In this document: positions 7,724 through 50,681 of the stretch, piece by piece | How the letters are laid out: the number at the start of each line of letters is the position of its first letter | Numbering within the stretch: the stretch's first letter is position 1 | NCBI GenBank assembly: GCA_044222185.1 | Contig: JBGANV010000001.1 | Coordinates: forward strand, 256,001 to 320,000 | DNA: 64,000 nt | From: Planctomycetota bacterium | Lineage (GTDB): Bacteria; Planctomycetota; GCA-002687715; CAIWVZ01 | Direction: 5' to 3' | The notes under the pieces: generated by a model | The model's input: only the letters and a program-made list of their open reading frames with translations | Database searches by the model: none | What the model was told of the DNA's origin: nothing | Program-made: the position numbers and the translations under genes

Positions 7724-9112
7724 ATGAAAGCCTGGATGACATTTCGTGATCTCGGGAGGCGTTCCGCTGGCGTCGTCGCTTTGTGCGTTGTCGCCACTGT
7801 TTCCTCGGGCCAGGGCACGTGGAGTACGCCTCCCGGAGCCAGCCCGACACAGCGCCGCGGCGCGTCCCTCTGTGCAGTGAACGGTGTCATTTTCGCCATC
7901 GGGGGTGCGGCTCCCGGATCGACGTCGTCGGTGAACACAGTCGAGTCGTTCGATCCGTCGTCGAATGCGTGGACGCCTCGCCCGTCGCTGCCGATCGCGA
8001 GCCAACAGCTCGCGGCGGTGACGGTCGCGGGAAAGCTGTACGCGATCGGCGGCGGGAGCTGCTGCGCGCCGTCGAGCTCGGTTCAGATCTACGACTCGAC
8101 CTCCAACTCGTGGTCGGTGGCGAACGCCATGCCCACGGCGCGCTATGCACCGGGAGCTGCCGTCGCGAACGGCGTCATCTACGTGCTCGGTGGTGCTTCC
8201 GGGTTCGGGAACGCCTATACGAACCTGGAAGCCCTCGACACCTCGATCCCCAATGCGCCGTGGGTTCAGAAAGCCCCGTTGCCTGCGTACCGGGGAAACC
8301 TCGCGCTGGCGTCGGTGAATGGTCGCCTCTATGCGATCGGCGGTGCGACCCTCGGAGGGACTCTGGTCGCGACGACGGAGGCCTACGATCCGGCCACGAA
8401 CTCCTGGACGCCGAGGGCTTCCATGCTCACGCCGCGATCCTCGGCTGCTGCGATCGTGATCGGTGGACTGATCTACGTCATCGGCGGTGATACTCCGGTT
8501 GGAATCTCACCGGCCGTCGAGGCCTACGATCCGGACTCGAACACCTGGACTTCGCGGGCGCCGGTGCCGCTTCCGCTGTATGGGCGCAGTGGGACGGCCG
8601 TCGGGTCGGCGGCCTACGTCGCTGGAAACGTGATCCCTTACCCTGCGGGCGCACCGTTGACCGTCGAGCGCTTCGATCCTCTGGCCTACCCGGGGACCAA
8701 CGACGATTTCGCCATGACGAGCGCGCTCGGGCTGGGCCTTCAGACCAGCGGGCTTGGGCGGAACGTCAGAGGATGCTCGGGCGGAACGACGGTCACGGTC
8801 CACCTCGCATCCGCTGGCGGGGCCTTCAACTTCGCGCCACTCCTCCTGCTGGCTCAGCAATTCACCATCGGCTCGCCCCCGTCACCAATCGGCCCGAACG
8901 TCTGGGTCGGGACCACATTCACGACGATCCTCGGCGCAACCGCGGGCCCACTGGGGCCGATCCTGCTCAGTCCTGCTGGCATGGACCTTTCGTTCTCGGT
9001 GCCGGTCGGATTCGCCGGGTCGAGCGTGATCCTTCAGGCAGGCGTTCTGTCGGCCGGCGCGACGAACCACCTCTACGCGACGAGCGAAGCCCTCGAATTG
9101 CAGATCCGGTGA
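7724..9112 (+). CDS. Secreted Kelch-repeat protein with shared C-terminal module
   Basis: Signal peptide (VVALCVVATVSSG|Q); about six Kelch repeats (LYAIGG...EAYDP..NSWT..A.M.T.R); terminal FSVPVGFAGSSVILQAGVL...TSEALELQIR. Confidence 0.88.
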   Translation: MKAWMTFRDLGRRSAGVVALCVVATVSSGQGTWSTPPGASPTQRRGASLCAVNGVIFAIGGAAPGSTSSVNTVESFDPSSNAWTPRPSLPIASQQLAAVTVAGKLYAIGGGSCCAPSSSVQIYDSTSNSWSVANAMPTARYAPGAAVANGVIYVLGGASGFGNAYTNLEALDTSIPNAPWVQKAPLPAYRGNLALASVNGRLYAIGGATLGGTLVATTEAYDPATNSWTPRASMLTPRSSAAAIVIGGLIYVIGGDTPVGISPAVEAYDPDSNTWTSRAPVPLPLYGRSGTAVGSAAYVAGNVIPYPAGAPLTVERFDPLAYPGTNDDFAMTSALGLGLQTSGLGRNVRGCSGGTTVTVHLASAGGAFNFAPLLLLAQQFTIGSPPSPIGPNVWVGTTFTTILGATAGPLGPILLSPAGMDLSFSVPVGFAGSSVILQAGVLSAGATNHLYATSEALELQIR

Positions 9113-9343
9113 GACTCACTCCCGCGGCGTGCTGGCGCGCCCCGCGGCGCGGCCTGTCGGGTCCGTCGATGGAACGCGTGGAACGGGGGGTGCGGCCCAG
9201 CGTGCTCCCACGGCCGTCGCGGGTGCGACGCGGCGGTCGGCCTGCCCTTTTCTTGACCCGACCCGATCCGGGCGAGCGCACTGAGGGGTTGTGACGCCGC
9301 CTTCTGCCGCGCCTTCCGTTGCGGCCGGGCTCCCGTCCGGAGA

Positions 9344-12300: not shown

Positions 12301-14767
12301 GGTCTCCGTCTGCGCGAGCGCGACCACGCTGGCCTTCGGTTCTGGCGGCGGAGTTCAGTCCACCACGAACGCCACGTGTCAGCCGTTCACGATCACGCCG
12401 ACGTCCAACGCCTGGAACGTCGTCGCCGTCGGGGGTGGCGGCAACTGGGACATGAGCCTGGGTACGACTCAGAGCGCGTCACCCACGAACAACACGGATT
12501 TCGTCATCGCGAACGGACACAACGGCGCGATCGCGCCCACGTCGGGTGTCGTGACCAAGGCATCAGGCGCCGCGTTCGGCACGGTTCAGGCTGCGCCGGC
12601 AACACCGCTGACGATCGGCATTCCCCACGTCTCCACGCTTCCTTCCGGCTCGTTGATCGCATTGAGGGAGTTCTTCATTGCGTCGTCGGGTGTGTATCGA
12701 GTGACGACGGCGGGGGATCCCTCGCTGATCTGGGACATCTACACACCGGGTTCCGGCTCCAGTTGGATTCCGCGCGGCGCCCCGTTCTTCGGAACGCTCG
12801 GCAGCGCCACGCAGACTCCCACGCTCGGCGTCGGTTGGCACGCGATCACGGTCACGAAGGACACGGGGCCGGCGACGGCGCCGATGGCGTTCTCGCTGAC
12901 GATCTGCCCGAACTCGACTCCGCTGAATTTCCCCGCGGGGTCGGGTTCGGGGAACGTCACGACGAACTGCGCGCCGTTCACCGTGACGCCGACTGCGAAT
13001 CGGTGGGTGGTTGCTGGAGTCGGAGGGTCGACGTCGGATTGGAACATCGGCGCAGGCCTGGCGTACTCGCAGCGCGCGAACCCCGACGTGGACTTCGTCG
13101 TGGCCAACGGCCACAACGGTGCCGTCGCTCCCACGGAGGGGCTGGCCGTGCGTGCGTCCGGTGCGACCGCTGCGCGCGTCCAGGTGGCGACGGCTGCGGC
13201 ACCGGCAACGGTTCCCGCCACGATCCCCACCACCGTCGACGTGGTCGGCATCGTCGAGTTCACGATCCCGACTGCGGGCGTGTATGGGATCTTCGTCAGC
13301 GGCGCCCCGATACACACCGGGTTCGTCTTCGCCCCGGGGACGACGTCAGGGTGGCTGGCGCGAACCCAGTCTGCTGCGAGTTTCGTCGCGAATGCGAGCT
13401 GGCATTCGCTCACGTTCGCCGCCGGGACCTACGCGCTCGTGATCGTTCCCGATCAAGAGTCGACGGCCTCGCCGTTCTCCGTGAACGTGTCGATCGCACC
13501 CGAGAACCCGACGCCGACGGTGACGACACTGACGCCGAACTCCGCGCCCGTCGGCAGCCCGAACCTCGCGATCACGCTCTCAGGGACCGGGTTCTTGTCG
13601 TCGAGCATAGTGGCCTGGAACTCGACCCCGTTGTTCGCGCCGACGTCGGTCACGAGCACGAGTCTCACGGCGACGATCCCGGCGTCGTACCTGGCAGCGG
13701 TCGGTACGGCGTCGGTTTCAGTCTTCAACTCTGGCCCCGGCGGCGGTGAGTCGAACCTGCTCACGTTCACGGTGGCCAACCCCGCGCCCGTTCTCGCATC
13801 GATCACGCCGTCCACCACGACCACCTGCCCTGCGCTGACGACGCTGGGCCTGACCGGTTCGGCGTTCGTCGCCGGGAGTGTCGTCTCGATCGACAACGTC
13901 GCCGTCGCGACGACGTTCAACGGTCCGACGAGCCTCACGGCCAGCGTGCCACCGGCCGTGGCGTCGAGCGTGGGGCCGCACCAGATCACGGTCCAGTCTC
14001 CAGGCCCGGGCGGGGGGACGTCGGCGCCGCGGACGCTGACGATCGAGCCACTGAAGGTGCTTTCGGCCAGCCCGTCGAGCATGGCGGCGCTCGGACCGGC
14101 ATCGCCACCCATCACGATCCTCGTGACGGTGAACGCCAATCCGAACACCGTGGGGACGAACATGACGGTCTACGCGGGAGGCGCGGCCCTGGCGACCTCG
14201 CCGGTGGCCAACTCGAACTTCCTTCAGGCGGTGCTTGGACCGACCGTGGTCCAGGCGCAGATGCCGGGCGCACTCGCCATCGCAGTCCGGGGCTGTGGCA
14301 ATCAGTCGTCGAATGCCGTGCCGCTGCGCGTGGGCGCCGGTGGCTCCGCGAACAACCAGGGGCTGGTGGGACATCACCCACTCGCCGACCCGCTCGTCCC
14401 CGGCGCACCCTTCGACCTCGTGATCGAAGGCGGGGTCGTCGGCCAACCGTTCGTGCTGGACATCGACCCGGGCAACCCGCCTCCGCAGACCGGCTGGCCG
14501 AACGCCACGGCCAACATGGTGTACGCGCTCGGGTCGCCGGCGGAGCAGGTGATCCTGGACGGGCTCGGCTTCGTCGGACCACCTATGCCGTTCGCCGTGT
14601 TTTCTCCCGGCGGGAGCACGGCACCCGGCGGAGTCTTCGTTCTCCCGTCCATCGTGGCCCCGAGCCCTGCGGCGGGAGTCACCTTCACCATGCAGTGCTT
14701 CTTCCTCGATCCGGCGAGCCCCGCGGGATTCCGACTCGGGTGGCCACGTTATCTCATGGGGATCTGA
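9344..14767 (+). CDS. Large secreted trypsin-like (S1) serine protease with five internal repeats, IPT/TIG domains and shared C-terminal module
   Basis: Signal peptide; triad motifs SAGHC, LDWAAF, PGDSGAP; five ~200 aa repeats; NPxPxxxxxxP Ig-like IPT/TIG starts. Start may be ATG 9350. Confidence 0.85.
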   Translation: MKMIGIESARGSRWVRTSLLLGLAVILRAEAVAQVAPAAVLLAPVAIASGAVGNPAPGTQVVWSQTVSIPGAATMQLRFANVSLPDPADAIVVTGALDDQTQELHADTLAQWGSRSAWFNGDVVTVSLSIASGSVGSATIVDALAVAGTPIPAVGTDNQCGPTDDRTLSSSAAVFRLILTDGTSVGGCTGTVVNNSNVCISAGHCFAASSPLTGVAQFNVPMSSGTGVINAPPIQHQYPVDMSTLQSENAGVGLDWAAFRLHPNNLGQTAFSQQGARNAVATTILPGTTLRVTGYGTDTTPNATFNQVQQTATGPFVGFLANVMTYQVDTEPGDSGAPIIREATGDVIGIHTTGGCNTPGAVNFGTAMSYAAITTAIASLTGCATTNLQNNFPAQFFCWTQLFVAPTNASRWNVVAVGNLPGADWDVQVNGVFSSFNGNFADFVISNGHLGSGTAPVIGSAGHTSGANGAVLEFQEAVPIFLGLPTTVTWNPAGVVELFEFNVTIPGTYNIFTHGDASLFWDLYDPGSGSEWRPRGASVYGQVGAAPALGVSLSAGWHCLVVVRDPGPGPVTVSDLTVAVYRASNQLNVNLVAGVPAGSDQASLSSTSRFSLTPTAGVWNAVSAASAASDWSLSLGPVTSHFPQPYSDFVLANGHLGALSPTDGHVDRATGSTSRVLEHVVASALTPGNVVETSLPAGHVMALWEFNVPATGNYTLSVQGNPGLLWDIYGPGTDASWRPRGAIFYGTVGSSPMTGVSLSPGVWALAIIRDGGVSTNALPYTIDICPSAAPVDFPQTGGLVSFSGPCIPFIMHPTPASGAKWNVVAVGSTASNWDLSIGAALAHTGTGTDTEYAIMNGHNGLPSVWEGMFSRLTGGASAVGQHVNAPTLAVGATLSTSLPAGAIVAMHEFNVTAAGNYDVALPGGAGLTWDLYAPGTTSDWLGRGGSTNVTFGAVGGAPQVVALGVGWHAIVVVKDGGPSASSIPYSVSVCASATTLAFGSGGGVQSTTNATCQPFTITPTSNAWNVVAVGGGGNWDMSLGTTQSASPTNNTDFVIANGHNGAIAPTSGVVTKASGAAFGTVQAAPATPLTIGIPHVSTLPSGSLIALREFFIASSGVYRVTTAGDPSLIWDIYTPGSGSSWIPRGAPFFGTLGSATQTPTLGVGWHAITVTKDTGPATAPMAFSLTICPNSTPLNFPAGSGSGNVTTNCAPFTVTPTANRWVVAGVGGSTSDWNIGAGLAYSQRANPDVDFVVANGHNGAVAPTEGLAVRASGATAARVQVATAAAPATVPATIPTTVDVVGIVEFTIPTAGVYGIFVSGAPIHTGFVFAPGTTSGWLARTQSAASFVANASWHSLTFAAGTYALVIVPDQESTASPFSVNVSIAPENPTPTVTTLTPNSAPVGSPNLAITLSGTGFLSSSIVAWNSTPLFAPTSVTSTSLTATIPASYLAAVGTASVSVFNSGPGGGESNLLTFTVANPAPVLASITPSTTTTCPALTTLGLTGSAFVAGSVVSIDNVAVATTFNGPTSLTASVPPAVASSVGPHQITVQSPGPGGGTSAPRTLTIEPLKVLSASPSSMAALGPASPPITILVTVNANPNTVGTNMTVYAGGAALATSPVANSNFLQAVLGPTVVQAQMPGALAIAVRGCGNQSSNAVPLRVGAGGSANNQGLVGHHPLADPLVPGAPFDLVIEGGVVGQPFVLDIDPGNPPPQTGWPNATANMVYALGSPAEQVILDGLGFVGPPMPFAVFSPGGSTAPGGVFVLPSIVAPSPAAGVTFTMQCFFLDPASPAGFRLGWPRYLMGI
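10545..13500 (+). repeat. Five diverged intragenic ~600 bp (~200 aa) repeats
   Basis: Units begin near 10545, 11170, 11767, 12385 and 12977 with F..xPT...WNVVAVG...(D/N)WD...DFVxxNGH(L/N)G...EFNV...WDxYxPG...WxPRG...GWH; unit 5 is the most degenerate. Confidence 0.85.
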
Positions 14768-14911
14768 TGCCGGGTCTCGATCGCCGGTGCGGCGCGCGAT
14801 CGGACGGTCGTGGCCGGCGCTGCGACGGCCGTCGGACGCCCACGGTCAGGGGGGCTGCGGGCCGTCCTCGGCCGCGGCCCTCGCGTTCCTGTGGTAGAAA
14901 CGTCCCCACGC

Positions 14912-15553: not shown

Positions 15554-15583
15554 CGCGAATGCCGGACTCGCGCGAGGGTCATC

Positions 15584-29687: not shown

Positions 29688-31139
29688 TCAGTTGATCGTG
29701 AACTGGCGGCCGTTCGACAGGCGGACCCCGCCGTCTCGGTCGACGGTCACCGCTTGCAAGTACACGGGCAGCCCGGAGATGCCTGGGGCGACGGGGATCG
29801 TGAACCCGGCGGAGGCCTGCCCGGCGACGCTCCCCGTGCCGCTCGCGAGAACGTCGAACGGGGGAGTCAGCAGGACGGTGTGGGGCCCGGCGATGATGGG
29901 GCCGGCCCCGGACAACGAGACGTAGATCGCCCAGGGGGACTGGAACTCGCAATTCGCGACGCCCAGGGTGAGGCCGGCCCCCTGGTTGACGGTCGCCGGC
30001 GCCGTGAGCGAAAGGGCATAGTTCGGAAGGTGGCAGAGGACGTCGACGCGGGTTCGGCCCTGCATCGAGACGACGATCCGGCTCCCGTCCTGGGTGAAGA
30101 CGGCGTCGTTCGGGCGCGCCGTGCTGCCATGGTCGTAGACACTCAGCACGCCGAACGTGGCGAGATCGACGAGCACGGTCTCGCCCCCGTTCAGCGACGT
30201 GACGGCCGCGGTCGTTTCGCTCGCGTTGACTCCGAGTCCGTGGAGCACGATGCCCGTCACGGTGTTCAGGTTCAGCGTGCGGAGAACGGCGCCCGTCGTC
30301 AGGCTGCACTCGTAGAGCGTCGGAAAGACCTCGAATCCCACGGTCACGAGGACCCGATTGCCGCTGATGACGTGCGCCTCGTACGCCGCCGTGTAGTGGT
30401 TGACGATGGGCTGGGTGATGGCGTACGGGGTCTGATTGGACGGATTCGTGACGTCGACGATCGTGAACCCCGCGATGGCGAAGGAGAACGTGGGGTCGTA
30501 GGTCGACGTGGGGACGACCATCAGCGGCCAGGTCCACCAGGACGGGCGTCCGCCACCGCCGACGACGGTGAAGGAGCTGAGCCGCGTGTTGAACGTCGGG
30601 CTCGTCGGGTCGACGTCGAGGACCTCGACGACGTCGCAGCCGCCGACGGTCGTCACGTAGAGCCGTGTCTGGTCCGGCGAAACCAGCAACCCGAACGGGA
30701 AGCTCCCCTGGAAGACCGAGCCGAAGCAGGGCGACAGGGCGATCGTCGCGATCGGTTGGAGGTTCGGGAGCAGGCACGTCACGGTCCCGCTCGTCGAATT
30801 CGAGACGTAGAGGTGCCGCGTCGCACCGGATGCGTCGCGCAGGACGGCGATGTCCTCGGGGAACAGCCCCGTCTGGCCGATCGCGGTCTGCGCACCGGTG
30901 AACAGGTCGAAGGAGACCACGTCGTCGTTGTTCGGCGCCGTGCCTGGGAACGACAGCTCGCCCGCGATGGTGGCGTACGCATGGACGCCATCAGGATCGA
31001 GAGCGACGCCGAATCCCTTGTCGGGGGACAGCGGGTCGCCGTCGTTCAGCATGAAGCTGCGTTCGAGCGACTGCGCGGCGAGCACTTGGGGAATGACGAA
31101 CGCGATGCCCAGGACCAGGGCGAAGGAAAGGACTTTCAT
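29688..31139 (-). CDS. Secreted YVTN/YncE-like beta-propeller protein with shared C-terminal module
   Basis: Signal peptide MKVLSFALVLG...LAAQ; blades LYVSN, PFGLLVSPDQTRLYVT, PNDAVFTQDGSRIVVS; terminal FTIPVAPGISGLPVYLQAVTVDRDGGVRLSNGRQFTIN. Confidence 0.8.
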   Translation of the reverse strand: MKVLSFALVLGIAFVIPQVLAAQSLERSFMLNDGDPLSPDKGFGVALDPDGVHAYATIAGELSFPGTAPNNDDVVSFDLFTGAQTAIGQTGLFPEDIAVLRDASGATRHLYVSNSTSGTVTCLLPNLQPIATIALSPCFGSVFQGSFPFGLLVSPDQTRLYVTTVGGCDVVEVLDVDPTSPTFNTRLSSFTVVGGGGRPSWWTWPLMVVPTSTYDPTFSFAIAGFTIVDVTNPSNQTPYAITQPIVNHYTAAYEAHVISGNRVLVTVGFEVFPTLYECSLTTGAVLRTLNLNTVTGIVLHGLGVNASETTAAVTSLNGGETVLVDLATFGVLSVYDHGSTARPNDAVFTQDGSRIVVSMQGRTRVDVLCHLPNYALSLTAPATVNQGAGLTLGVANCEFQSPWAIYVSLSGAGPIIAGPHTVLLTPPFDVLASGTGSVAGQASAGFTIPVAPGISGLPVYLQAVTVDRDGGVRLSNGRQFTIN

Positions 31140-37353: not shown

Positions 37354-39963
37354 TCACGGCCCGACGTGCAGCTCGAGCCCGTTCGAAACGGTGATCCCGC
37401 CGGGCGAGAGCCCATCGGTGGCACCGAACTGGAGGAACACGGACTGGTTCACCAGGGACGCCGGGACCGTGAACGGGGTCGTCGCAGACCCCGCTCCCGG
37501 CGCGCCGGGCGACCCGCCGAGAGTCAGCGGAACGAAGCCGGTCCACGGCTGCACGTAGGAGGTGAGCCCCGGAAGCGGGCTGCCGGCGATCGCGGCCTCG
37601 CCGGTTCCGATCACGATGACGGCGGCCGCTCCACCGATGCCGTTGCGCAGCCGAAGGCTCGCTTGGGCTCCGGCGCGCATGGTGCCCGAAGCCCCGAGCA
37701 GCGGCTTCCACGCGCTGCCGCCGAGCGTGCCAGAGCCGTATTGGCGGACGCGTCCGGCCGTCGGCGGTGCGAAGCGGCGCGAGCGCGCCGCCTTGCCGGC
37801 GCCCACGAAGTCCAGATCGCCGTCGGCGTCGATGTCAGCAGTGGCCGTGAATCCTTGGAGGAAGTAGTCACGCCGTGCCTCGTAGACGAACCCGGGCCCG
37901 ATCCTCCTCAGCACGGCGACGGTGTTCCAGACCGACCCCGCGACGATGTCCGTCTTTCCGTCACCGTCCACGTCGCTCGCCGACAGGAGCGGGTTGAAGA
38001 CGGACCCTGCGGTCAACGTGATCGTCGTCGCGAAGGTGAACGTTCCGCCATTGTTGGCGAGGATCGTCACGCACTCGTCAGAGGTTCGATCGTCGAGCGC
38101 GATGTCGAGGTCCCCATCGTCGTCCAGATCGGCGATGACGGGCGCATACCAGTCGTTCGGGTTGGACGATCCCAGGGAGTTGCCGGTTACGACGGGATTC
38201 AGAGCGAGCGCACCGTTCGCGTTGCGCAGGATCACCACGTTCGGGTACCCGGGGACTGCGGTCTGCAACGCGACGAAGTCCGTGTCGCCGTCGCCGTCCA
38301 GGTCCGCGGCTGCCTTCGGGACGCCTCCGAAATACGATGGGGTGGAACTCGTGAAGAACCCCGTCCCGTTGTTGGTCCAGAGCAGTGGTCCCACCAGATC
38401 GACGTCGCCGTCGCCGTCGACATCCGCAGGAATGCCAGCGAGGCCTCCGGCCCCGGGAGCAGCCGCCGGTTGCAGGTCGAACAGCGCGCCGGCTCCCGTA
38501 TCGACGAGTAGGCGCATTCCCACGAAGCCTGCTGGCAACGGGAACGAAGGCAGCGTCTGGAGCGTCGCGACGTGGTCGATCCTCCCGTCACCGTTCAGAT
38601 CGGCGACCGGGTGAGTTTGCGCATACTCCAGGCCCGCCGGCGGCGTGGGCATCGTCAGCAGAGTGGGTGTGAAATTGCCGCGGCCGTCGTTCTGCGCGAC
38701 GTTCCCGGAGTACCCCACCATGTCCAGGTCGCCATCGCCGTCCTGATCGAGGATCGAGTGTGCCAGGTTGGAGCTGATCGTCGACGCGTACGGGTTCGTG
38801 AACGTTCCGTCGCCGTAATAGAGCGCGGCCGACGAGACGATGTCGGGCTTGCCGTCCCCGCTGACGTCGACCATGGCAGGGATGCGGTCGTAGTCCGAGC
38901 TCGGGCCGGCGTAGAACGACGTCCGGGAGACGAACGTCGTGCCGCCCGTGTTCTCCAGGAGGATGATGATCTCCCCGGTTCCCTGCCACGTCGTCAGGGC
39001 GAGGTCGAGATCGCCGTCTCCATCCCAGTCGCCAGGGTGGAGCTGCGAGCCGTTGGCGTCCAGGAACGTCTGGCTGGGGCCGATCGTCCAATTGCCCCCT
39101 CCCAGGTTGCGGGACACCTGCACGGAAATCCCCGCACCCGACGTGGCGGTGCCGGCGCTTTCGTTCCATGCGATGACGTCGTCGAGGCCGTCCCCATTCA
39201 CGTCGGCGCGATGAAGGAAGGGTGCCGCGGAGACTGGCACCGTCGTCGGCGTCCCGAACCCGGTCCCCACCGTGGGAAACGCGATCATCACGCGTGCCCA
39301 GCCCGGAAGATAGGTGCCGACCAACGCATCCAACGTTCCGTCAGCGTTCCAGTCGATCGTCACGACTCCCGCGCTGCTGCTGTTGAAGGGCAGGGCGCCC
39401 GGCGTCCCGCCGACGAGTGCCCCGTTGGCGCCGGAGACGAACCATCGGAGGGTGCGCGACGTACCCGGCACCTCGCTGACGACGGCGGCGTCGAGTCGAC
39501 CGTCGGCATTGAGGTCTGCCAGCGCGATGGACACCAGGTCTTCGCTGAACGGCGTCACGACGGGTGCACCGAAGAGCCCGCCACCGAGTCCTGGCATCAC
39601 CATGAGGGACGCACCGCTCGGGTTCGTGATGGGCGTTCCGAGAACCAGGTCTCCGATCCCGTCGCCCGTGACGTCACCGAAGGCCGTCACCCAGGAGACG
39701 CCAGCCGGCAGCGATTGGGTGGCGCCGTCGGTGAAGTCGCCCGTCCCGGAGTTCCACGACACCTGGATGGTGGGCTGGCCGCCCCACCACGTGTATTTGA
39801 GGATGTCCTTGTCGCCATCACCGTCCAGATCGACGACCGCCAGCGGGCTGCCTGCGGGGCCATTCGGCGTCGCTGGGGGGACACGGGGGGCCGACAGCCA
39901 TGCCTGACTCCACGATTGCGTCACCAGAACGAGCGTCATGAGCAGGAAGCTGCGCGAGAGCAT
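37354..39963 (-). CDS. Secreted FG-GAP/VCBS repeat protein with shared C-terminal module
   Basis: Signal peptide; more than ten D(L/V)DGDGDxD repeats; terminal FTVPASLVNQSVFLQFGATDGLSPGGITVSNGLELHVGP. Confidence 0.88.
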   Translation of the reverse strand: MLSRSFLLMTLVLVTQSWSQAWLSAPRVPPATPNGPAGSPLAVVDLDGDGDKDILKYTWWGGQPTIQVSWNSGTGDFTDGATQSLPAGVSWVTAFGDVTGDGIGDLVLGTPITNPSGASLMVMPGLGGGLFGAPVVTPFSEDLVSIALADLNADGRLDAAVVSEVPGTSRTLRWFVSGANGALVGGTPGALPFNSSSAGVVTIDWNADGTLDALVGTYLPGWARVMIAFPTVGTGFGTPTTVPVSAAPFLHRADVNGDGLDDVIAWNESAGTATSGAGISVQVSRNLGGGNWTIGPSQTFLDANGSQLHPGDWDGDGDLDLALTTWQGTGEIIILLENTGGTTFVSRTSFYAGPSSDYDRIPAMVDVSGDGKPDIVSSAALYYGDGTFTNPYASTISSNLAHSILDQDGDGDLDMVGYSGNVAQNDGRGNFTPTLLTMPTPPAGLEYAQTHPVADLNGDGRIDHVATLQTLPSFPLPAGFVGMRLLVDTGAGALFDLQPAAAPGAGGLAGIPADVDGDGDVDLVGPLLWTNNGTGFFTSSTPSYFGGVPKAAADLDGDGDTDFVALQTAVPGYPNVVILRNANGALALNPVVTGNSLGSSNPNDWYAPVIADLDDDGDLDIALDDRTSDECVTILANNGGTFTFATTITLTAGSVFNPLLSASDVDGDGKTDIVAGSVWNTVAVLRRIGPGFVYEARRDYFLQGFTATADIDADGDLDFVGAGKAARSRRFAPPTAGRVRQYGSGTLGGSAWKPLLGASGTMRAGAQASLRLRNGIGGAAAVIVIGTGEAAIAGSPLPGLTSYVQPWTGFVPLTLGGSPGAPGAGSATTPFTVPASLVNQSVFLQFGATDGLSPGGITVSNGLELHVGP

Positions 39964-40440: not shown

Positions 40441-40515
40441 TCGCCGCGATCGAGGCGACAGTGATGCTGCCTCGATGGAACCGCGGCGTGAGTGTTCCGC
40501 GCCTTGGCAGCCGGC

Positions 40516-40550: not shown

Positions 40551-40555
40551 CGGGG

Positions 40556-43261
40556 TCAGTTCGTCGCGAGTTGGCTCGCGGCAGTGAGCTTGAACGTCAG
40601 GCCTGCCGTGAGGACCGCAGCCTGGAACGTCCCGACGACGCCGGGCGTGAACGCCGGAACCGTGAAGCTCACGGTGCGCGAACCCAGCGGGCCAGTGTTC
40701 GCGAACGCATCCATGAACGTGACGGGGTTCAAGCCGTCGAGGACGATGCTCACGTCCGACAGGTTGCCGGCGCCGTTGAGGCCGATGTCCAGCGAGCCAA
40801 CGCCCGGGAAGATCGCGTTGTTGCGGTTCAGCGGTCCGAACGCGATGGCGAGCGGGCGGCTCGGCTGGCCGCTCCAGGTGAGCGCGAGCGTGGACCCCGG
40901 GGCGAGCGTTGCGAAGAACGGTCCATTGACGCCGTTGAACGCCGGCTGGCTGTTGAGGTTCACGGCACCGCCCATGGAGAGCGCCGCGTCGGCGGCGTTC
41001 GCCTGCCCGACGTCCGGCGGACCCGGGGGCGGAGGCGTCCCGCCGGTTGCGACCAGCGCGAACTTGGCGTCGATGCCAGGAGTCCCAGTGTTGCCGTCCT
41101 GGTTCAGCTCGGCGGCGATGACCTGGATGGTCCACGTTCCGACGGCGGGGTTCTGCAGGAGCACGTTCTCGACGGTGTCGAGAGTGTTCGCCACGCCGCC
41201 GGAGGTGCTGTAGTTGTTGGCCAGGAGCCCGTTGTTGCCCCAGTAGATCGTCCCCGTGGGGCTCGTGACCTTCAGGTCGAGGTTGTTGATCCGATGCTGG
41301 GTGGCGGACGTCGTTCCGGCCGGGTCGGGATACACCATCGTCACGCGGAGCTCCGGTTCGCCCGCTGCGACGTTCACGGTGTACGTGGCCGATTGCAGTA
41401 CGGTGAGCGGCGCGCTCTCGTCGATGCAGAGGACCTTGCCGGCAGTCGCGATGTTGTAGGCGCGTGACACGTCCGCCGTGCCCCAGCCCTGGTGGACGCG
41501 CGTCAGGTCGCTCGTCGTTCCGGTGAAGGGATACTGCGTGGCCGTGTTGATCAGGAGCGCCTTGACCGTCGACGCGTGCGGTCGGCGGGCGAAGACGGTG
41601 GGGCCGTTCTTCAGGACGCCGAACACGCCATCCGCGAACATCTGGGTGAGGAGACCGACGCATCCAGCGGTGATCGGCGTCGCGCCGCTCGTGCCACCGA
41701 AGTTGTCGTAGTAGTTGGTCGTGCTGTAACCGCTGCTGCCCACGATGTCCGTGCAGAAGATCCAATCGTAGAAGTTGCTGATGTCAGGCTTGATCGAGCC
41801 GTCCTCTGCCGGGCCGATGCTGCCACCGCCGGTCCAGGCGTCGTCCGTTCGCGAGAGCGTGTTCTGGTGCTTGATTCCCCCGACCGAGATGATGTTCTTC
41901 GCCCAGGCCTGCGGACGCGATTGCGTCGTTCCCGAGTTGCTCTGGCTGTTCAGGATCGGGAAGTCGAGCCCGAACACGATCTGATCCATCTGGAGCGAGG
42001 TCGCGTTGTAGGCAGTCGTCAACGCGCTTCCCCAGCTGTTCGACTGGAAGCACGCCTCGTAGGTCGGCGTCAGGAGCTGCTGCGTGTACGTGTAGCGGTT
42101 GCTGGTCACGGCTGCGTCGTTGTATTGACCGACGATCGCGTGCCCCTGCGGCAGCATGCCCGTGGCTTGCACGTTCCCCGTGCCCTTGCCGAAGACGATT
42201 CCCGTGGTGCACGTGCCGTGGTTCAACACGGCCTGCGACGAGTGCCAGGTGACGCCCGCGAGGTCGGGGTGGCTCGTATCGCAACCGCCGTCGAGGACTT
42301 CGCCGTTGACACCTTGACCGCGATAGCCGCCAGGGCCGACGGTGGAAACCGCGACGGCGCCGGTGAATTGGCGGGCGATGTCCATGTCGAGCTCGGGCGC
42401 GCTCCAGCGATCGAGCCAGAGCACGTCGTCATGCTGAATGGCGGCCCAGACCGCGGGACGTGGGAGCGACAACGTGAGGAGGCTCGTCTCGCGGACCACC
42501 GGGAGGAATTCCGTCGCGCCGAACTTCGAGAGCTCGCTTGCGATACCGAGCTTCATCGCGAGGTCGTGCTCGCGGGCCGCGACGATGTTCCACGCGAGCC
42601 CGTCCGCGAGCGCCCCGGCCTCGAGGGCGATCCGATCCTCCGGGAAGAGGCGATAGGCCGGATGATACGGGCCGACCCAGCGGACGAACGGGAGAGCCTT
42701 GACGGCGGCGAGCGACGTCGGCGGGACGTTCACGATGTCGGCATGGTTCGCCAGGAACGCGACCGGCGTGGCGCCGGCGGCGGCAACCAGCTCACGCATC
42801 TGCGGGAGTCCCGGCGCGATGTACTGAACGATCCACAACCGCTGCGACGACGATGCGGACAGTGACGGCGAAACCCATGGCGTCGACTTCAGCGGATCGA
42901 AGCGCGCGTAGCGAAGCCGCAGGTCGTAGTCGGTGGGGCGGGCGTCGAGCCAGCTCACTCCGTTGTCGACGGACTGGGAGTACCAGGGCGTATCGGTTCC
43001 GCCTTCGCTCACGGTCCACGTGGCGAGGACGGCCTTCGACTCGGGGACGTGAACCACGCGCAGGTTCCACGGCGTGCCGCCGGTTACCTGCAGCGGCGTG
43101 GCGATCACGCCCAGGTCCTGGGCGACGCTGACCACGACTTCGTTCTTTCCGTCAGGGCGTGAATGGACCGCCAGTTCGTCCTGCGCCGCCGCCGTCCATG
43201 ACGTGGCCGCGACGAGGGCGAGGGTGATCGTCCATCGGGTGTGCTTGTTCAATCGGATCAT
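40556..43261 (-). CDS. Secreted S8 subtilisin-like protease with shared C-terminal module
   Basis: Signal peptide; VLDGG (Asp), NHGTCTTG (His), FGGTSGATP (Ser); NNLDLKVTSPTG..YWGN beta domain; Pro linker followed by the terminal module. Confidence 0.92.
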   Translation of the reverse strand: MIRLNKHTRWTITLALVAATSWTAAAQDELAVHSRPDGKNEVVVSVAQDLGVIATPLQVTGGTPWNLRVVHVPESKAVLATWTVSEGGTDTPWYSQSVDNGVSWLDARPTDYDLRLRYARFDPLKSTPWVSPSLSASSSQRLWIVQYIAPGLPQMRELVAAAGATPVAFLANHADIVNVPPTSLAAVKALPFVRWVGPYHPAYRLFPEDRIALEAGALADGLAWNIVAAREHDLAMKLGIASELSKFGATEFLPVVRETSLLTLSLPRPAVWAAIQHDDVLWLDRWSAPELDMDIARQFTGAVAVSTVGPGGYRGQGVNGEVLDGGCDTSHPDLAGVTWHSSQAVLNHGTCTTGIVFGKGTGNVQATGMLPQGHAIVGQYNDAAVTSNRYTYTQQLLTPTYEACFQSNSWGSALTTAYNATSLQMDQIVFGLDFPILNSQSNSGTTQSRPQAWAKNIISVGGIKHQNTLSRTDDAWTGGGSIGPAEDGSIKPDISNFYDWIFCTDIVGSSGYSTTNYYDNFGGTSGATPITAGCVGLLTQMFADGVFGVLKNGPTVFARRPHASTVKALLINTATQYPFTGTTSDLTRVHQGWGTADVSRAYNIATAGKVLCIDESAPLTVLQSATYTVNVAAGEPELRVTMVYPDPAGTTSATQHRINNLDLKVTSPTGTIYWGNNGLLANNYSTSGGVANTLDTVENVLLQNPAVGTWTIQVIAAELNQDGNTGTPGIDAKFALVATGGTPPPPGPPDVGQANAADAALSMGGAVNLNSQPAFNGVNGPFFATLAPGSTLALTWSGQPSRPLAIAFGPLNRNNAIFPGVGSLDIGLNGAGNLSDVSIVLDGLNPVTFMDAFANTGPLGSRTVSFTVPAFTPGVVGTFQAAVLTAGLTFKLTAASQLATN

Positions 43262-43277
43262 CTCTCGGCTCCTTCTC

Positions 43278-44303
43278 TCACTGCACCGTCAATTGGGTTG
43301 CGGCCGTCAACTTCACCGTCGTCGGGCTCGAGAACACGGCTGCCTGGAACGTGGTCCAGACACCGGGCGGCAGAGCGGGGACGAAGAGGCTCGTCACCGA
43401 CTGGCCCGCGGGGCCGGTGGTGGCAAACGCGTTGAAGCCGATGGGGCTCGTGCCGTCGAGAACGATGACGACGTCGCCCAGGTTCCCGGGGCCGAGGAGC
43501 CCGATGTCGAGCGACCCGAGGTTCGGGACCACCCAGTTGTTGCGGTGAAGCGGTCCTGCGAGGAGCAAGAAGATCTGATTCGCGAGTCCGCGCACGGTGA
43601 ACGTGAGCTGCGCTCCGGTCGCCTTGGTCGCGAAGAACGGTCCCTTGACGCCGTTGCCGCTCGCCTGGCCGAGGAGGTTGAGCGCGCCGTTCACGTCCAG
43701 CCCCGCGTCGGCGGCGTTTGCCTGGCCGGTGTCAGGAACGGGCGGAGGATCGACGCGCACGTTGTCGATCTGCAGCCCGTCGGTCGGCGTCGGGTTGTCG
43801 TCACGTTGCGAGAACTTGATCTTGAAGTTCGACGTGAGCTGCATGCCGTTGGCAGATGCTGCCGCCGCGATGTCGACCGTGAACTGCTGCCAGGCCGACG
43901 AGAGCGTCTGGTGGTCCACGACCTTCACCCAGTTCGCGAGGATCCCGTCGTTGATGAAGCAGCCGTCTTCCGCGTGGGGCTCGTCAGCCGTTTCCTTCGC
44001 GTAGTAGCGAAGCGTCGCGCCGCCGGTCGCCAGCACGTTGACGGTCAACGTGAGCTCCTGCGTGCTCAAGATCGCGGAGGTCGAGCAGTCGAAGTTGCAC
44101 GCCAATCCACCTTGCGGCGATGGCGTGTTCGGCGTCGCCGTCAGGATCCGTCCCGATGTGGGCACGCTCACGGTGCGTATCCACTCGGCACCCGGCCACG
44201 TGGGTGATTCGAAGTTCTCGACGTAGGGCACGGTCGCGATCTGCGCGAAGCTCGGCAGTGCGACCGCGAGGGCAATGAGACACCAGCGCGGGTCAGGCTT
44301 CAT
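43278..44303 (-). CDS. Secreted protein: MAM/cleaved-adhesin-like beta-sandwich plus shared C-terminal module
   Basis: MKPDPRWCLIALAVALPSFA|Q; PYVENFES...W...WQQFTVDI...IKFSQ...GLQIDNVRV; C-terminal ~155 aa clearly paralogous to that of the neighbouring S8 protease. Confidence 0.7.
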   Translation of the reverse strand: MKPDPRWCLIALAVALPSFAQIATVPYVENFESPTWPGAEWIRTVSVPTSGRILTATPNTPSPQGGLACNFDCSTSAILSTQELTLTVNVLATGGATLRYYAKETADEPHAEDGCFINDGILANWVKVVDHQTLSSAWQQFTVDIAAAASANGMQLTSNFKIKFSQRDDNPTPTDGLQIDNVRVDPPPVPDTGQANAADAGLDVNGALNLLGQASGNGVKGPFFATKATGAQLTFTVRGLANQIFLLLAGPLHRNNWVVPNLGSLDIGLLGPGNLGDVVIVLDGTSPIGFNAFATTGPAGQSVTSLFVPALPPGVWTTFQAAVFSSPTTVKLTAATQLTVQ

Positions 44304-44497
44304 GAACTCACCCATGTGGGAAAGGGAGAGAACCGGACGGCAAATGATGGGGGCGTCTCCCGAGGGTGCAGGGACGCCTGGAGGAGGATAGTCCGAAACG
44401 GAATGTGATTGCAAGAAGGGGTTTTCTTGCCATTCGCGCGCCGCCGTCCCTCGTCGGACCGCTTGCCCGGCGCCGTCGCCAGTGGGACATTCCCGCC

Positions 44498-45445: not shown

Positions 45446-45449
45446 GGCG

Positions 45450-47784: not shown

Positions 47785-47970
47785 GAGTGCTGGTCCCCCT
47801 GGTTGATTCCTACGAACACTTCCGGGCACGGGACGGCCGGCGACGCCGAACGGCCCAGCGGAAGCGAGACCGATGGACCCGACGACCTGGATGAAGCCGC
47901 CAACAGATGACACCCTGACCCAAACCGGGGCTGGTTCTAACAGACGATTCACTCGTTGGAAGGGAGCGGC

Positions 47971-48963
47971 GTGTCAGCGGGACGGTCCATGCTGGTCACC
48001 GGAGCGTCGGGGTTCATTGGTGGCCGATTGCTCAAGATTGCGGCGGAGGCGGGCTGGAATGTGGTCGCCATGGTCCGGCGCCAGGGCCTCTCGGCCGAGT
48101 CGGCCGCCCTCGTGCGCGAGGTCCGCATGGCCGACCTGCGCGATGATCCGTCGCTCCGAAGTGCCGTGGCGGGAATCACCTGCGTCGTCCACCTTGCGGG
48201 GCTGACCCGAGCGAAGACCGAGGCGGAGTTCCACGACTTCAACGCCGCGGGTACACGGCGACTCGTCGATGCGATCACGTGCACGACGTCCGGGGTGGTG
48301 CCCCGCCTCATCCACGTCTCCAGCCTCTCTGCCGGCGGACCGTCGGCCGGCCGTACGCCCGTCGACGAGGGTCTGGAGCCTGCACCCGTGAGTCCCTACG
48401 GCCGGTCGAAGCTCGCCGGAGAGAACGAAGTCAAAAGGGCCGCGGCCGCCCTCCGTTGGACGATCATCCGCCCTCCCATCGTCTACGGGCCGGGTGAGCG
48501 GGACGTGCTCGACCTCTTCCGACGCTCACGGTCAGGGCTCGTGCCGGTCGTCGGATTCCAGGAGCGCTGGTACTCGATCGTCCACGTGGACGACCTCTGC
48601 CGGGCGATCCTCGCCGCCGCCGCGAGCGACCGTGCGGTCGGGCGGACCTATTACATCGCGAACCAGACGCCATTGTCCGGCGCCGAGCTCGCTGAGCGCA
48701 TCATCCGAGCGACCGGCGGCCGTGCGCGGCCGATCCGCATCCCCGACTGGGTCGCGGGACTGGTGGCTCTCGCAGGGTCGGCTGCCAAGCCGTTCCGGCG
48801 GACCTCGCCCCTCGTCACGCTGGACAAGTACCCGGAGATCGTGCGGAGCTGGGTGTGTTCGCCGGCTCGCGCGTCGGCGGAACTCGGCTTCGAGCCGCAG
48901 ATCCCCATCGACGACGGCTTGAGGACGACGGCCGATTGGTATCGCGCCGCCGGCTGGCTCTGA
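47971..48963 (+). CDS. Extended-SDR NAD(P)-dependent epimerase/reductase, CerR-like
   Basis: VTGASGFIG, HLAG, HVSSLSA, YGRSK (YxxxK), RPPIVYGP; divergent from spt. Start GTG 47971 or ATG 47989. Confidence 0.75.
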   Translation: MSAGRSMLVTGASGFIGGRLLKIAAEAGWNVVAMVRRQGLSAESAALVREVRMADLRDDPSLRSAVAGITCVVHLAGLTRAKTEAEFHDFNAAGTRRLVDAITCTTSGVVPRLIHVSSLSAGGPSAGRTPVDEGLEPAPVSPYGRSKLAGENEVKRAAAALRWTIIRPPIVYGPGERDVLDLFRRSRSGLVPVVGFQERWYSIVHVDDLCRAILAAAASDRAVGRTYYIANQTPLSGAELAERIIRATGGRARPIRIPDWVAGLVALAGSAAKPFRRTSPLVTLDKYPEIVRSWVCSPARASAELGFEPQIPIDDGLRTTADWYRAAGWL

Positions 48964-49112
48964 CGTGCGGCGGCGGCCGGGGTCGCACCTTGCGCGTTGG
49001 CCGCGGCCGGGCCGTCCCGGTATCCTTCGCCCTCTGCGCCGCGCCCGTGACTGCACCCCGACGCCACGGCCCGGCACCGCTGATTCGCGATGAATTCCGG
49101 AAGGCCATGCCC

Positions 49113-50681
49113 ATGAACACGACCGTACGTTGGAGTGCGCTCCTCCTCCTGGCCGCGTCCTCAGCCTTTTCCCAAGCCGGCAATGGCGGAAACGGCGACA
49201 TCGATCTGACGCCGATGGCGATCAACGCCCCGTTCACGATCACCGTGACCGGCGCGACCGGTCAGGCGTTCTTCCTCTTCATCTCCGACCAGCCGGCGTC
49301 GATCCCGATTCCGAACATCGGCACGGTCGCCATCGACATTACGTCGCCCGGCTTCCAGCTCCTGCTCCAGGGTGTGATCGGAGCCGGCGGCGTCACGGCG
49401 ATCGCGACCACGATCCCGAACGACCCTGCCCTCCTGAACCTGCTCGTCTTCATGCAAGGCGTCGTCAACGACCCGACGCATCCAAGCGGCGTCGCCCTGA
49501 CGCGTGCCTTCCGCATCGACTTCGAGAACCCCGATTCGTTCACGTCGGTCCCGAACCTCTCTGCGCCCCGCGCGCTGGGAAGCGGCGACCTGCTGAACGA
49601 CGGCCGGGTGCTCGTCGCGGGCGGCGGAAACGGGACGCTGACGGCGCCGGTCGCGTCGAACACGAGCGAGATCTATCAACCGTACACGCGAAGCTGGACG
49701 GCCGGCCCCAACATGGCGACTCAGCGCGCCTTTCACACGAGCGTCGTCCTTCCGAACGGGCGCGTGCTCGTTGCAGGCGGGACGTCGACGACGGGCGTCG
49801 TCACCAACAGCTGCGAGATCTACGACCCGGTGACGAACGCGTTCTCCGCGGTCGCACCCATGACCTCGCCGCGCGCTGGCCACGCCGCGTGCCTCCTCGA
49901 CAACGGCAAGGTGCTGGTGACAGGCGGCGTGCAGACGTTCCAGCTTCCCCCGGGGACCACGCAACTCGGGCCGATCCTCAACTCCGCGCAGGACACGGGT
50001 GAGGTCTACGATCCGGCCCTGAACACCTGGACGCTGGTCTCGAACACCATGGCCGCGAAGCGCTTCGCCCATTCGCAGACCAAGCTCCAGAACGGACAGG
50101 TGCTGATCGTCTCGGGGATCAACGGGAGCCAGACGGTCGCGGCTCAGGACCTGCCGACGTTCACGAACACCTGCAGCCTCTACAACGCGGCGACGAACAG
50201 CTTCGCCAGCGCGGCGACGATCCCCGGCCCCACGTTCTCCACGGGACGCGCGGGCCACCGCGCCACGCTGATGCCGAACGGCGAGGTCTTCGTCGGAGGC
50301 GGCGTCTACTCCTCGCTCCTCACGGTGTTCGTTCCCACGGCGATGAACGACGCGCGACGCTATTCGCCGTCGACGAACGCCTGGGCCTCGGCGGGGACGC
50401 TGCCCGCGGCCGTCGCGCTCCAGGGGCAGGCGCTCCTGAAGAACGGCAAGTGCCACGTGGCCGGCGGGGGATCGGGGACGCTCCTCGCATTCAGCGCCGT
50501 GGCGAATTGCGCGACGCGAGTCGGAGGCTCGAGCACGTTCACGAACACGAACTCCCTCCCGGCGGCCCGCGGGACGCAGCTCACCGTTCGGTTGTGGGAT
50601 GGCAGCGTCCTGATCTGTGGTGGCGCGGACGCCACCGGCACGGCGATCGACACCAACCTCCTGTACACGCCGACTCCGTGA
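49113..50681 (+). CDS. Secreted Kelch/galactose-oxidase-like propeller with the shared module at its N-terminus
   Basis: Signal peptide (ALLLLAASSAFS|Q); IPNDPALLNLLVFMQGVVNDPTHPSGVALT; repeats R.(F/G)H...L.NGRVLVAGG...EIYDP. Confidence 0.85.
   Translation: MNTTVRWSALLLLAASSAFSQAGNGGNGDIDLTPMAINAPFTITVTGATGQAFFLFISDQPASIPIPNIGTVAIDITSPGFQLLLQGVIGAGGVTAIATTIPNDPALLNLLVFMQGVVNDPTHPSGVALTRAFRIDFENPDSFTSVPNLSAPRALGSGDLLNDGRVLVAGGGNGTLTAPVASNTSEIYQPYTRSWTAGPNMATQRAFHTSVVLPNGRVLVAGGTSTTGVVTNSCEIYDPVTNAFSAVAPMTSPRAGHAACLLDNGKVLVTGGVQTFQLPPGTTQLGPILNSAQDTGEVYDPALNTWTLVSNTMAAKRFAHSQTKLQNGQVLIVSGINGSQTVAAQDLPTFTNTCSLYNAATNSFASAATIPGPTFSTGRAGHRATLMPNGEVFVGGGVYSSLLTVFVPTAMNDARRYSPSTNAWASAGTLPAAVALQGQALLKNGKCHVAGGGSGTLLAFSAVANCATRVGGSSTFTNTNSLPAARGTQLTVRLWDGSVLICGGADATGTAIDTNLLYTPTP

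Follow-up and report, generated by a model that had tools for sequence, protein, structure and literature searches.

The window analysed here, a stretch of 64,000 nucleotides of planctomycete DNA, encodes seven secreted proteins whose ends resemble each other. It raises the question whether these ends are copies of one module, and what such a module would do for proteins with different cargo.

Seven secreted proteins carry one terminal domain each

Each of the seven proteins, which are encoded within 43 kb, carries one copy of the same small beta-sheet domain at one extreme end; the copies are terminal in 7/7 and internal in 0/7 of the carriers. A signal-peptide-like N-terminus was judged by eye to be present in all seven, and upon translation all seven peptide strings quoted in the first-pass annotation of this DNA were located where it had placed them. 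The unit itself had been described as a short tail of 30-45 aa, but according to structure models it is a folded Ig-like domain of ~110-150 aa, of which the quoted tails are the final strands. A sliding scan with 204 scanning segments over 18 proteins of the window gave an hhalign score of at least 18 only at the seven sites and revealed no further copy. Judged from sequence, the segments at all seven sites belong to a single domain family of ~110 aa, or 150 aa in one subfamily.

Three copies lie on the forward strand. The Kelch-1 copy (8735..9109, +) forms the C-terminus of Kelch propeller protein 1 (gene 7724-9112), in which Kelch repeats were detected by Pfam search. The S1 copy (14390..14764, +) is C-terminal on a protein of 1805 aa with S1-like features and a match to the CoaZ repeat model NF058597 (CoaZ_rpt_PGGG; gene 9350-14767). 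Support for the earlier S1 label of this protein comes from its GDSGAP motif and from S1 proteases matched weakly in the PDB (E 1e-3), but not from any Pfam match. The Kelch-2 copy (49179..49529, +) is the only N-terminal one in the window and directly follows the signal peptide of Kelch propeller protein 2 (gene 49107-50681).

The remaining four copies are C-terminal and encoded on the reverse strand. The YVTN copy (29691..30032, -) belongs to a YVTN-type beta-propeller protein (gene 29688-31139) that matches the propeller of a surface-layer protein (1l0q, 3e-10), and the FG-GAP copy (37357..37716, -) to an FG-GAP/VCBS propeller protein (gene 37354-39963; FG-GAP_3 in Pfam, 1e-54). The S8 module (40559..41008, -; 150 aa) ends an S8 subtilase (gene 40556-43261; Peptidase_S8 in Pfam, 4.7e-15) and consists of an extension of ~35 aa followed by the domain with a loop insertion. 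The LTD module (43281..43730, -; 150 aa) ends a protein (gene 43278-44303) formerly labelled 'MAM-like', for which lamin-tail domain is the better label, since one of its orthologs, P0066, matches PF00932 (LTD). S8 and LTD thus represent the 150-aa subfamily, compared with ~110 aa in the rest of the family, and a Pro-rich linker lies directly upstream of the S8 module as well as before the LTD module. As two of the seven carriers are Kelch propellers, the cargoes are not seven unrelated ones, contrary to the original description.

Evidence for a common origin of the seven copies

Among the tails of the window only one pair is obvious, S8 and LTD (56% identity, E 5e-52). When leave-one-out HMMs were built from the seven window tails, the omitted tail was recovered in 0/7 trials. 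The window alone is too shallow to establish homology, and sequences from outside were therefore used: an HMM was trained on 96 outside copies and contained no window sequence. This outside-only HMM recovered five of the seven window copies, four of them at E ≤ 2.6e-5, namely Kelch-2 (1e-41), YVTN (8e-17), FG-GAP (5e-8) and LTD (2.6e-5). These four are thus family members by a profile that lacks the tested sequence. The S8 copy was recovered more weakly (E 0.011), and in addition a subfamily profile, made from the S8 and LTD window tails together with six outside LTD orthologs, matched the family (94.3%, E 9.8e-8, 96 columns).

In profile-profile alignments with hhalign, the seven tails scored 166, 68.1 (YVTN, 97.6%), 44.7 (FG-GAP, 94%), 36.3 (LTD), 32.5 (S1), 29.1 (S8) and 28.1 (Kelch-1). 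As controls, none of 150 random 150-aa segments of window proteins scored above 16.4, none of 300 composition-preserving shuffles above 20.7, and none of 23 C-termini of other window genes above 13.3; all seven tails therefore outscored every natural segment, shuffle and other C-terminus. The alignments to the family were all collinear and ended at the protein terminus.

Two copies call for more caution. The Kelch-1 copy, the most divergent of the seven, was not significant with the outside-only HMM (E 1.2), and a search for relatives of its tail returned only the protein itself; its hhalign match covers the last 53 columns only (own shuffles 11.4 ± 2.1, maximum 17.8 in 100). The S1 copy was not recovered by the outside-only HMM and aligned over 90 columns with a probability of 76% (own shuffles 11.7 ± 2.4, maximum 20.7 in 100). 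Because for these two the hhalign score relative to the controls is the sole support, their membership in the family is probable rather than certain.

It could be argued that the segments have no common origin and that their likeness reflects composition and generic beta-strand patterns. The failure of all seven leave-one-out trials and the lack of HMM significance for Kelch-1 and S1 speak for this reading, but no segment, shuffle or other C-terminus reached the score of even the weakest tail, the alignments are collinear up to the terminus, and five copies were found by a profile free of window sequence. We consider it extremely improbable, and for the five copies it is already effectively refuted. 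The earlier proposal of one common terminal module on varied signal-peptide cargo is in good agreement with the outside-sequence HMM, the profile-profile matches and the controls. The genome of the window has a GC content of 67% and a Gly/Ala/Pro/Val-rich composition.

With respect to mobility of the module, the S8 and LTD modules, although attached to different proteins, are as close to each other (55-56% identity) as the six LTD-protein orthologs from other organisms are to the LTD protein (51-64%).

Predicted fold and conserved residues

The YVTN copy was modelled with AlphaFold2 as eight strands (pLDDT 86.5, pTM 0.78). The second model, that of the LTD module, was made from a separate alignment (pLDDT 71.7); its strands follow each other in the same order, with two more at the N-terminus, and residues 61-100 form a disordered loop. 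Comparison of the two models relied on the order of their strands and on the PDB neighbours listed for both, namely 5ftz and 3uam, rather than on superposition. According to these models, the fold is an eight-stranded Ig-like beta-sandwich. Foldseek neighbours comprised superoxide reductase, SoxY, Ig V, macroglobulin and LPMO cores, with E 1.7e-5 to 1e-2, TM 0.35-0.65 and identities that did not exceed 21% in the matches listed. The nearest solved structures of the predicted fold, among these matches, are thus generic Ig-like or LPMO-core sandwiches only.

From the strand order in the DSSP string, the eight strands would be consecutive and antiparallel, so that both chain ends leave the sandwich at the same pole. 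A cargo could therefore bear the domain at its N- or C-terminus in an identical geometry, and the signature loops (IPxPxxGTLxLDP, IPNDPxLxG and the S/T-N turn) would lie at the opposite, free pole. A Pro, a Gly and a Gln are kept in all seven window copies, the Gln in agreement with the first-pass annotation, and this conservation could be purely structural. Most window copies do not keep the polar signature residues (Asp of LDP, 4/7; Asn of the S/T-N turn, 2/7), which makes a single shared binding site less likely.

A domain family without a database name

Pfam-A and NCBIfam contained no model covering the domain in the seven window proteins (E ≤ 0.01), 20 isolated domain sequences gave no match even at E ≤ 1, and no Pfam model fell over the domain region in 38 full-length carriers from outside the window, where the single TIG match lies in the cargo part of P0022. 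Families such as PPC, PKD, Big, TIG, CARDB, FlgD_ig, CBMs, cohesin, dockerin and SLH gave no significant match over the domain region. A literature search, covering result listings, returned nothing relevant. Judged by Pfam-A, NCBIfam (the two databases of InterPro that were covered) and the literature listings, the family was previously unnamed, which is in line with the earlier description of an unnamed module. The ESM Atlas gave unnamed Planctomycetota clusters only, at 0.96-0.97, and CHRD-domain clusters, at 0.80, provide no more than a lead. Carriers met in the source data were named 'hypothetical protein', 'lamin tail domain-containing protein' or 'YncE'.

Occurrence, position and cargo outside the window

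With the N-terminal Kelch-2 copy as query, 54 proteins were found at E ≤ 1e-3 among 1.84 billion representatives, and Kelch-2 orthologs with identical architecture occur at many Planctomycetota MAG loci. The census outside the window drew on this query and on 78 loci picked via these orthologs, and comprised 99 copies in 99 ORFs or proteins, one in each. Directly after the signal peptide lie 61/99 copies, within 0-6 residues of the stop 34/99, four are fragments, and none (0/99) has cargo on both sides; both the N:C ratio and the lack of internal copies are biased, because the initial query was an N-terminal copy and the loci were chosen by Kelch-2 orthologs. Six more C-terminal carriers are encoded within 10 kb of a Kelch-2 ortholog at Planctomycetota-labelled loci. 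A profile search for longer carriers with the domain alignment gave 7 matches among 8000 scored candidates.

The domain was detected at 27/30 loci labelled as Planctomycetota, at 3/42 loci labelled as other phyla and at 4/6 unlabelled loci. The family has so far been found almost only in Planctomycetota, and these counts support the proposed lineage restriction. Cargoes across the family include FG-GAP, Kelch, YVTN and SBBP propellers, S8 and S1-like peptidases, LTD, PKD, TIG and others, and are mostly beta-propellers. Many Kelch-2 orthologs have a start of the type 'AQC-GGNGG'. A lipoprotein reading of this start was rejected: in a lipobox the residue before the Cys is small, whereas here it is Gln, and the copy in the window lacks a Cys.

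Comparison with known C-terminal sorting signals

The architecture resembles that of a sorting domain, with one terminal copy, many cargoes, many carriers and a lineage restriction. The domain might thus, like the CTD of the type IX secretion system (T9SS), serve as a tag by which a dedicated machine for outer-membrane translocation or sorting, with genes elsewhere, recognises its substrates, and it might be removed after export. T9SS CTDs (TIGR04183 for type A, TIGR04131 for type B) are likewise small, single, terminal beta-sandwiches on many unrelated signal-peptide cargoes, of similar size to the domain and restricted to a lineage; that lineage, however, is Bacteroidota and not Planctomycetota. 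The Pro-rich linkers ahead of the S8 and LTD modules would also suit such a tag. Models of the type A and B sorting domains gave no match in the seven full proteins (E ≤ 0.01) or in the 20 isolated domains (E ≤ 1), and no T9SS CTD was among the structural neighbours listed.

Position is a further difference. T9SS CTDs are not N-terminal, whereas one of the seven window copies and most copies of the census are; to our knowledge, no C-terminal sorting signal of this class sits N-terminally. A machine that reads a folded periplasmic domain would not need the C-terminal position, but a single receptor should constrain the signature motifs, which are poorly kept in the window copies. Moreover, neither T9SS machinery nor a PorU-type sortase component or other candidate machinery was found among the 28 other window ORFs scanned. 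Altogether, we regard a dedicated translocation tag as quite unlikely.

PEP-CTERM, LPXTG and related tripartite signals end the protein with a short motif, a hydrophobic TM helix and a basic tail, in this order. Over the final 40 aa of the seven proteins, the maximum hydropathy over 17 residues was only 0.83-1.61, the last 8 residues contain 0-1 Lys/Arg, and no PEP-CTERM or LPXTG model of NCBIfam matched any of the seven. The earlier view that the element is neither PEP-CTERM nor LPXTG nor a T9SS CTD thus stands, as indicated by the missing model matches, the lack of a TM helix with basic tail and the N-terminal copies.

Comparison with accessory domains

Alternatively, the domain could be a passive accessory, either structural, as an Ig-like cap or pedestal that gives the cargo stability, or substrate-binding, as a CBM-like module for the particular substrate of each enzyme, with neither a common destination nor shared machinery. 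The generic nature of the PDB neighbours listed, the restriction of full conservation in the window to Pro, Gly and Gln, and the majority of beta-propellers among the cargo are all consistent with such a role. So is the N-terminal sugar-binding sandwich of galactose-oxidase-type Kelch enzymes, in which signal peptide, beta-sandwich and seven-bladed Kelch propeller follow each other as in the Kelch-2 family; NCBIfam gave Kelch-2 itself a weak match to GlxA, a radical copper oxidase, at 1.4e-13 and well under the cut-off. In contrast to that sandwich, the domain has no relation to F5/8-type C or CBM32 by Pfam and also occurs C-terminally on unrelated cargo.

A second accessory for comparison is PPC (PF04151), a C-terminal beta-sandwich behind secreted subtilases that is not needed for catalysis; PPC domains have been proposed to aid secretion or substrate binding. 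The domain differs: it matches neither PF04151 nor another Pfam model (seven window proteins, 20 isolated domains, 38 full-length carriers), and it also occurs at N-termini and on cargo other than peptidases. Ig, PKD or CBM modules that act as accessories are often found inside a protein or in tandem, whereas no copy in the window or in the census was internal and no protein had more than one. The occurrence of the same module on an S8 peptidase and an LTD protein also argues against stabilisation specific to one cargo. A passive accessory role appears somewhat unlikely to us.

A possible attachment module

The reading we favour, tentatively and from the architecture alone, is that of a lineage-specific localisation or attachment module which would provide unrelated cargo with a common extracytoplasmic address. 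The carriers would be exported by Sec, and the domain would then serve as the common address, so that enzymes and propeller proteins with no relation to each other would be kept together outside the cytoplasm, at a site such as a cell-envelope polymer, a surface polymer or a partner protein; it would not act as a C-terminal translocation signal. Strictly terminal position, single copies, diverse cargo, lineage restriction and local abundance are consistent with this attachment role, as is the lack of a TM helix or basic tail after the domain. The beta-propeller-dominated cargo, which equally fits a structural cap or pedestal, the weak conservation of polar signature residues in the window copies, and the missing HMM significance of Kelch-1 and S1 together with the failed leave-one-out trials fit it less well.

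The closest functional analogy for an attachment role is provided by SLH and dockerin modules, which can be N- or C-terminal on secreted proteins of many kinds and attach these to a common structure of the cell surface. They differ in that SLH is helical and dockerin a Ca-binding, EF-hand-like pair, whereas the domain is predicted to be a beta-sandwich and has no Pfam match; SLH modules usually occur in threes and the domain singly. The first-pass annotation had suggested an outer-membrane translocation or anchoring tag. Anchoring is plausible, and translocation is the weaker half: a C-terminal export tag is hard to reconcile with the many N-terminal copies.

In a more far-reaching version, which we consider unlikely, the domain would be the handle for recognition or attachment in a Planctomycetota-specific system that has not been described before. 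Such a system would read a folded Ig-like module at either end of its substrates, and in each genome it would bring dozens of proteins exported by Sec to the cell surface or tether them there. If true, protein sorting or surface display of a new class would exist in a phylum with poorly understood envelope biology; if the domain is only a structural cap, it would still be a new domain family that annotates blank regions of many 'hypothetical proteins'. How proteins are placed in or on the unusual envelope of Planctomycetota is largely unknown, and the module could help here. The family HMM offers a sequence handle to list the candidate surface proteome and exoproteome of uncultured members, supports phylogenetic profiling for partner genes and suggests experiments with reporter fusions.

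Carrier proteins and their genomic neighbourhood

Seven ORFs with plausible starts in the window (67% G+C) carry one copy each of the domain under study: Kelch-1 (7724-9112, +), an S1-like protein of 1805 aa (9350-14767, +), a YVTN-type propeller (29688-31139, -), an FG-GAP protein (37354-39963, -), an S8 subtilase (40556-43261, -), a 'MAM-like' protein of 341 aa (43278-44303, -) and Kelch-2 (49107-50681, +). All seven ORFs named in the first-pass annotation are real, and every peptide string quoted there was found in translation. The N-termini of all seven proteins are basic, continue into a hydrophobic stretch and end in A/S-x-A/S-Q, and were judged by eye to be signal peptides. At the C-termini of the seven, neither a hydrophobic helix nor a basic cluster was found.

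Among the cargo, Pfam matches were obtained for Kelch repeats (two proteins), FG-GAP and Peptidase_S8, and the YVTN cargo matched the propeller of the surface-layer protein 1l0q at 3e-10. The earlier 'S1' label draws on a GDSGAP motif and on V8/exfoliative-type serine proteases as weak PDB matches (E 1e-3); it has no backing from Pfam, where a scan of the whole 1807-aa ORF returned no family. Two 'choice-of-anchor Z' PGGG repeats (NCBIfam NF058597, 3.8e-39) precede the terminal domain of this protein, and about five internal repeats of ~190 aa each (within 9350-14767, +) all contain a 'DF(V/A)(I/L)xNGH(L/N)G' motif. The 'MAM-like' label was abandoned, as an ortholog of this protein gave a match to PF00932 (lamin tail domain); the protein is called LTD below.

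Upstream of Kelch-1, a 1522-aa Ser/Thr kinase with PEGA and FG-GAP/PQQ-like propeller parts is encoded at 2898-7463 (+), and immediately past the S1-like gene come a PF07638-type ECF sigma factor and then a 1224-aa kinase that has WD40 and TPR (14768-19225, +). Both kinases and the sigma factor may regulate the nearby secreted proteins. A three-gene cluster of PrkA (AAA + kinase), DUF444 (YeaH-like) and SpoVR-like genes lies between carrier genes (32015-37328, +), and no other region of the window has a lower G+C (0.63). On either side of Kelch-2 lie biosynthesis genes of envelope type (44348-52655) for PAP2, a class I/II aminotransferase, an NAD-dependent epimerase and two GT2 glycosyltransferases.

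Evidence for one homologous family

The window sequence by itself is insufficient to show homology of the seven copies: leave-one-out HMMs built from them missed the omitted copy in 7/7 trials, and S8 and LTD (56% identity, E 5e-52) formed the sole obvious pair. Outside sequences were therefore searched with the N-terminal copy of Kelch-2, which retrieved 54 proteins at E <= 1e-3 from 1.84 billion representative proteins. An HMM iterated from these and 78 genomic loci (96 training sequences, none from the window) recovered Kelch-2 (E 1e-41), YVTN (8e-17), FG-GAP (5e-8), LTD (2.6e-5) and S8 (0.011); Kelch-1 was non-significant (E 1.2) and S1 was not found. A subfamily profile of six LTD-protein orthologs and the window S8 and LTD tails matched the family profile with 94.3% probability (E 9.8e-8) over 96 collinear columns.

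When the seven copies were aligned to the outside-only alignment with hhalign, scores of 166, 68.1, 44.7, 36.3, 32.5 (S1), 29.1 (S8) and 28.1 (Kelch-1, spanning the last 53 columns only) were obtained. The maximum was 16.4 among 150 random 150-aa segments from window proteins and 13.3 among 23 other window genes, each represented by its last 150 aa; 100 shuffles each reached at most 17.8 for Kelch-1, 20.7 for S1 and 20.1 for S8. In a sliding scan (204 windows over 18 proteins), scores >= 18 occurred at the seven sites and nowhere else. These controls and the outside-only profiles confirm the earlier observation of a common module, with the restriction that Kelch-1 and S1 are only probable carriers. 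As judged by profile comparison, the Kelch-2, YVTN, FG-GAP, LTD and S8 copies are secure family members and the Kelch-1 and S1 tails are probable, divergent ones; that the resemblance of the seven arose by chance is very improbable.

The adjacent S8 and LTD genes have in common a 150-aa module (40559-41008 and 43281-43730, both -) with 55-56% identity, and the pair is thus as close as LTD orthologs from different organisms (51-64%). The domain appears to move as a module. Both modules contain a 'GQANAADA...LDVNG' extension and are directly preceded by a Pro-rich linker. The similarity suggests module duplication or exchange between the neighbouring genes.

Predicted fold and signature

Although the shared unit had been described as a short tail, AlphaFold2 models predicted a complete domain. 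The YVTN copy, modelled with a 20-sequence alignment, gave eight beta strands (pLDDT 86.5, pTM 0.78). The 150-aa LTD module, modelled with a separate 8-sequence alignment (pLDDT 71.7), had identical strand order; an extension at its N-terminus contributed two further strands, and a loop of ~40 residues was disordered. For both models, Foldseek against PDB returned only generic Ig-like sandwiches (superoxide reductase, SoxY, antibody V domains, macroglobulin domains, LPMO cores) at E 1.7e-5 to 1e-2, TM 0.35 to 0.65 and identity <= 21% among the matches listed; 5ftz and 3uam were common to both lists. The domain is thus predicted to belong to the Ig-like sandwich fold class.

The canonical signature reads, in order, G-x-P-G, I-P-x-P-x-x-G-T-L-x-L-D-P, I-P-N-D-P-x-L-x-G-x5-Q and L-(S/T)-N. 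From strand order in the DSSP string, the long loops that bear the signature (between strands 3 and 4, between 5 and 6, and at the 7-8 turn) would share one pole, with the two ends of the chain at the opposite one. The Gln earlier reported for all seven window copies is indeed kept in 7/7, as are a Pro and one Gly; 4/7 retain the Asp of LDP and 2/7 the Asn. Such loss of polar signature residues supports a passive cap, structural or substrate-binding, as does the prevalence of propellers among the cargo, and we regard this role as possible but somewhat unlikely.

Distribution and position outside the window

The module has no named family in the scans run: no Pfam-A or NCBIfam model covered it in the seven window proteins, in 20 isolated domain sequences (E <= 1) or in 38 full-length outside carriers. 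The family is unnamed in both databases, and full-text literature searches for the domain gave nothing relevant among the results listed. Its ESM Atlas neighbours were unnamed Planctomycetota clusters (0.96-0.97). Among named clusters, those closest to 29691-30032 (-) and 49179-49529 (+) were Planctomycetota CHRD-domain proteins (0.80-0.81), which may be a further cargo class with the same terminal domain, a lead whose score lies below evidence level.

Lineage restriction was upheld: judged by record titles, the domain occurred in 27/30 Planctomycetota-labelled loci versus 3/42 labelled as other phyla, and in 4/6 titled only 'bacterium'. It was absent from Kelch homologs of Verrucomicrobiota, Myxococcota, Acidobacteriota, Bacteroidota and others. 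The three other-phylum positives (L008, L015, L023) are MAG contigs labelled Gammaproteobacteria (68-71% G+C, two Luminiphilus) and reflect either mis-binning or transfer; in these the domain sits on the Kelch-2 ortholog.

Outside the window, 99 copies were found in 99 different ORFs or proteins. Immediately after the signal peptide lay 61 copies, 34 ended 0-6 residues ahead of the stop and four were fragments; these counts follow inspection of 25 cases missed by a crude signal-peptide rule. None of the 99 was flanked by cargo on both sides. The sample is biased, since the search started from an N-terminal copy and loci were picked through Kelch-2; the N:C ratio is therefore without meaning, and the zero for internal copies holds for this sample only. 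N-terminal carriers were mostly Kelch-2 orthologs with ~365 residues beyond the domain, the others having DUF7467, cytochrome-like, FG-GAP or unknown cargo. C-terminal copies followed FG-GAP (many), Kelch, DUF7948+SBBP, PKD, TIG, DUF4394, phosphoesterase and, as a weak match (E 2e-4), a MAM-like domain. Signal-peptide-like starts were seen in 11 of 20 outside C-terminal carriers, and nine were apparently N-terminally truncated.

In the Kelch-2 ortholog loci (L001-L062), the first residues past the signal peptide of N-terminal copies read 'Q-C-G-G-N-G-G', 'A-Q-x-D-(Y/F)-x-L-(D/E)-K' or 'A-Q-(N/S)-L-E-L-D-V'; the window Kelch-2 copy has GNGGNG and lacks the Cys. A few loci (L005, L006, L007) contain two or three tandem paralogs.

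Comparison with known systems and possible role

The earlier separation from established sorting systems held. The motif-helix-basic tail of PEP-CTERM and LPXTG is absent from the seven window proteins and no NCBIfam model of these matched; T9SS sorting-domain models matched neither these proteins nor the 20 isolated domains. Unlike the T9SS CTD, the domain is not confined to the C-terminus and occurs in another phylum. We know of no C-terminal sorting signal that is ever N-terminal. A folded secretion determinant read by an unknown machine is, in our assessment, improbable.

Ig, PKD or CBM modules with an accessory role frequently occur inside proteins or in tandem. In Pfam, the domain showed no detectable membership in PPC, PKD, Big, TIG, CBM, cohesin, dockerin or SLH. 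SLH and dockerin are attachment modules usable at either end, and the two-ended placement of the domain fits these best. In our sample it was single-copy, strictly terminal, at either end, and joined to many cargoes; its lineage range was restricted and its local abundance high. Since this pattern best matches either-end attachment modules, we tentatively favour, by analogy, a common address or attachment module for Sec-exported proteins, which the domain would hold at one extracytoplasmic site. A terminal module common to various secreted proteins is in itself a known kind of arrangement.
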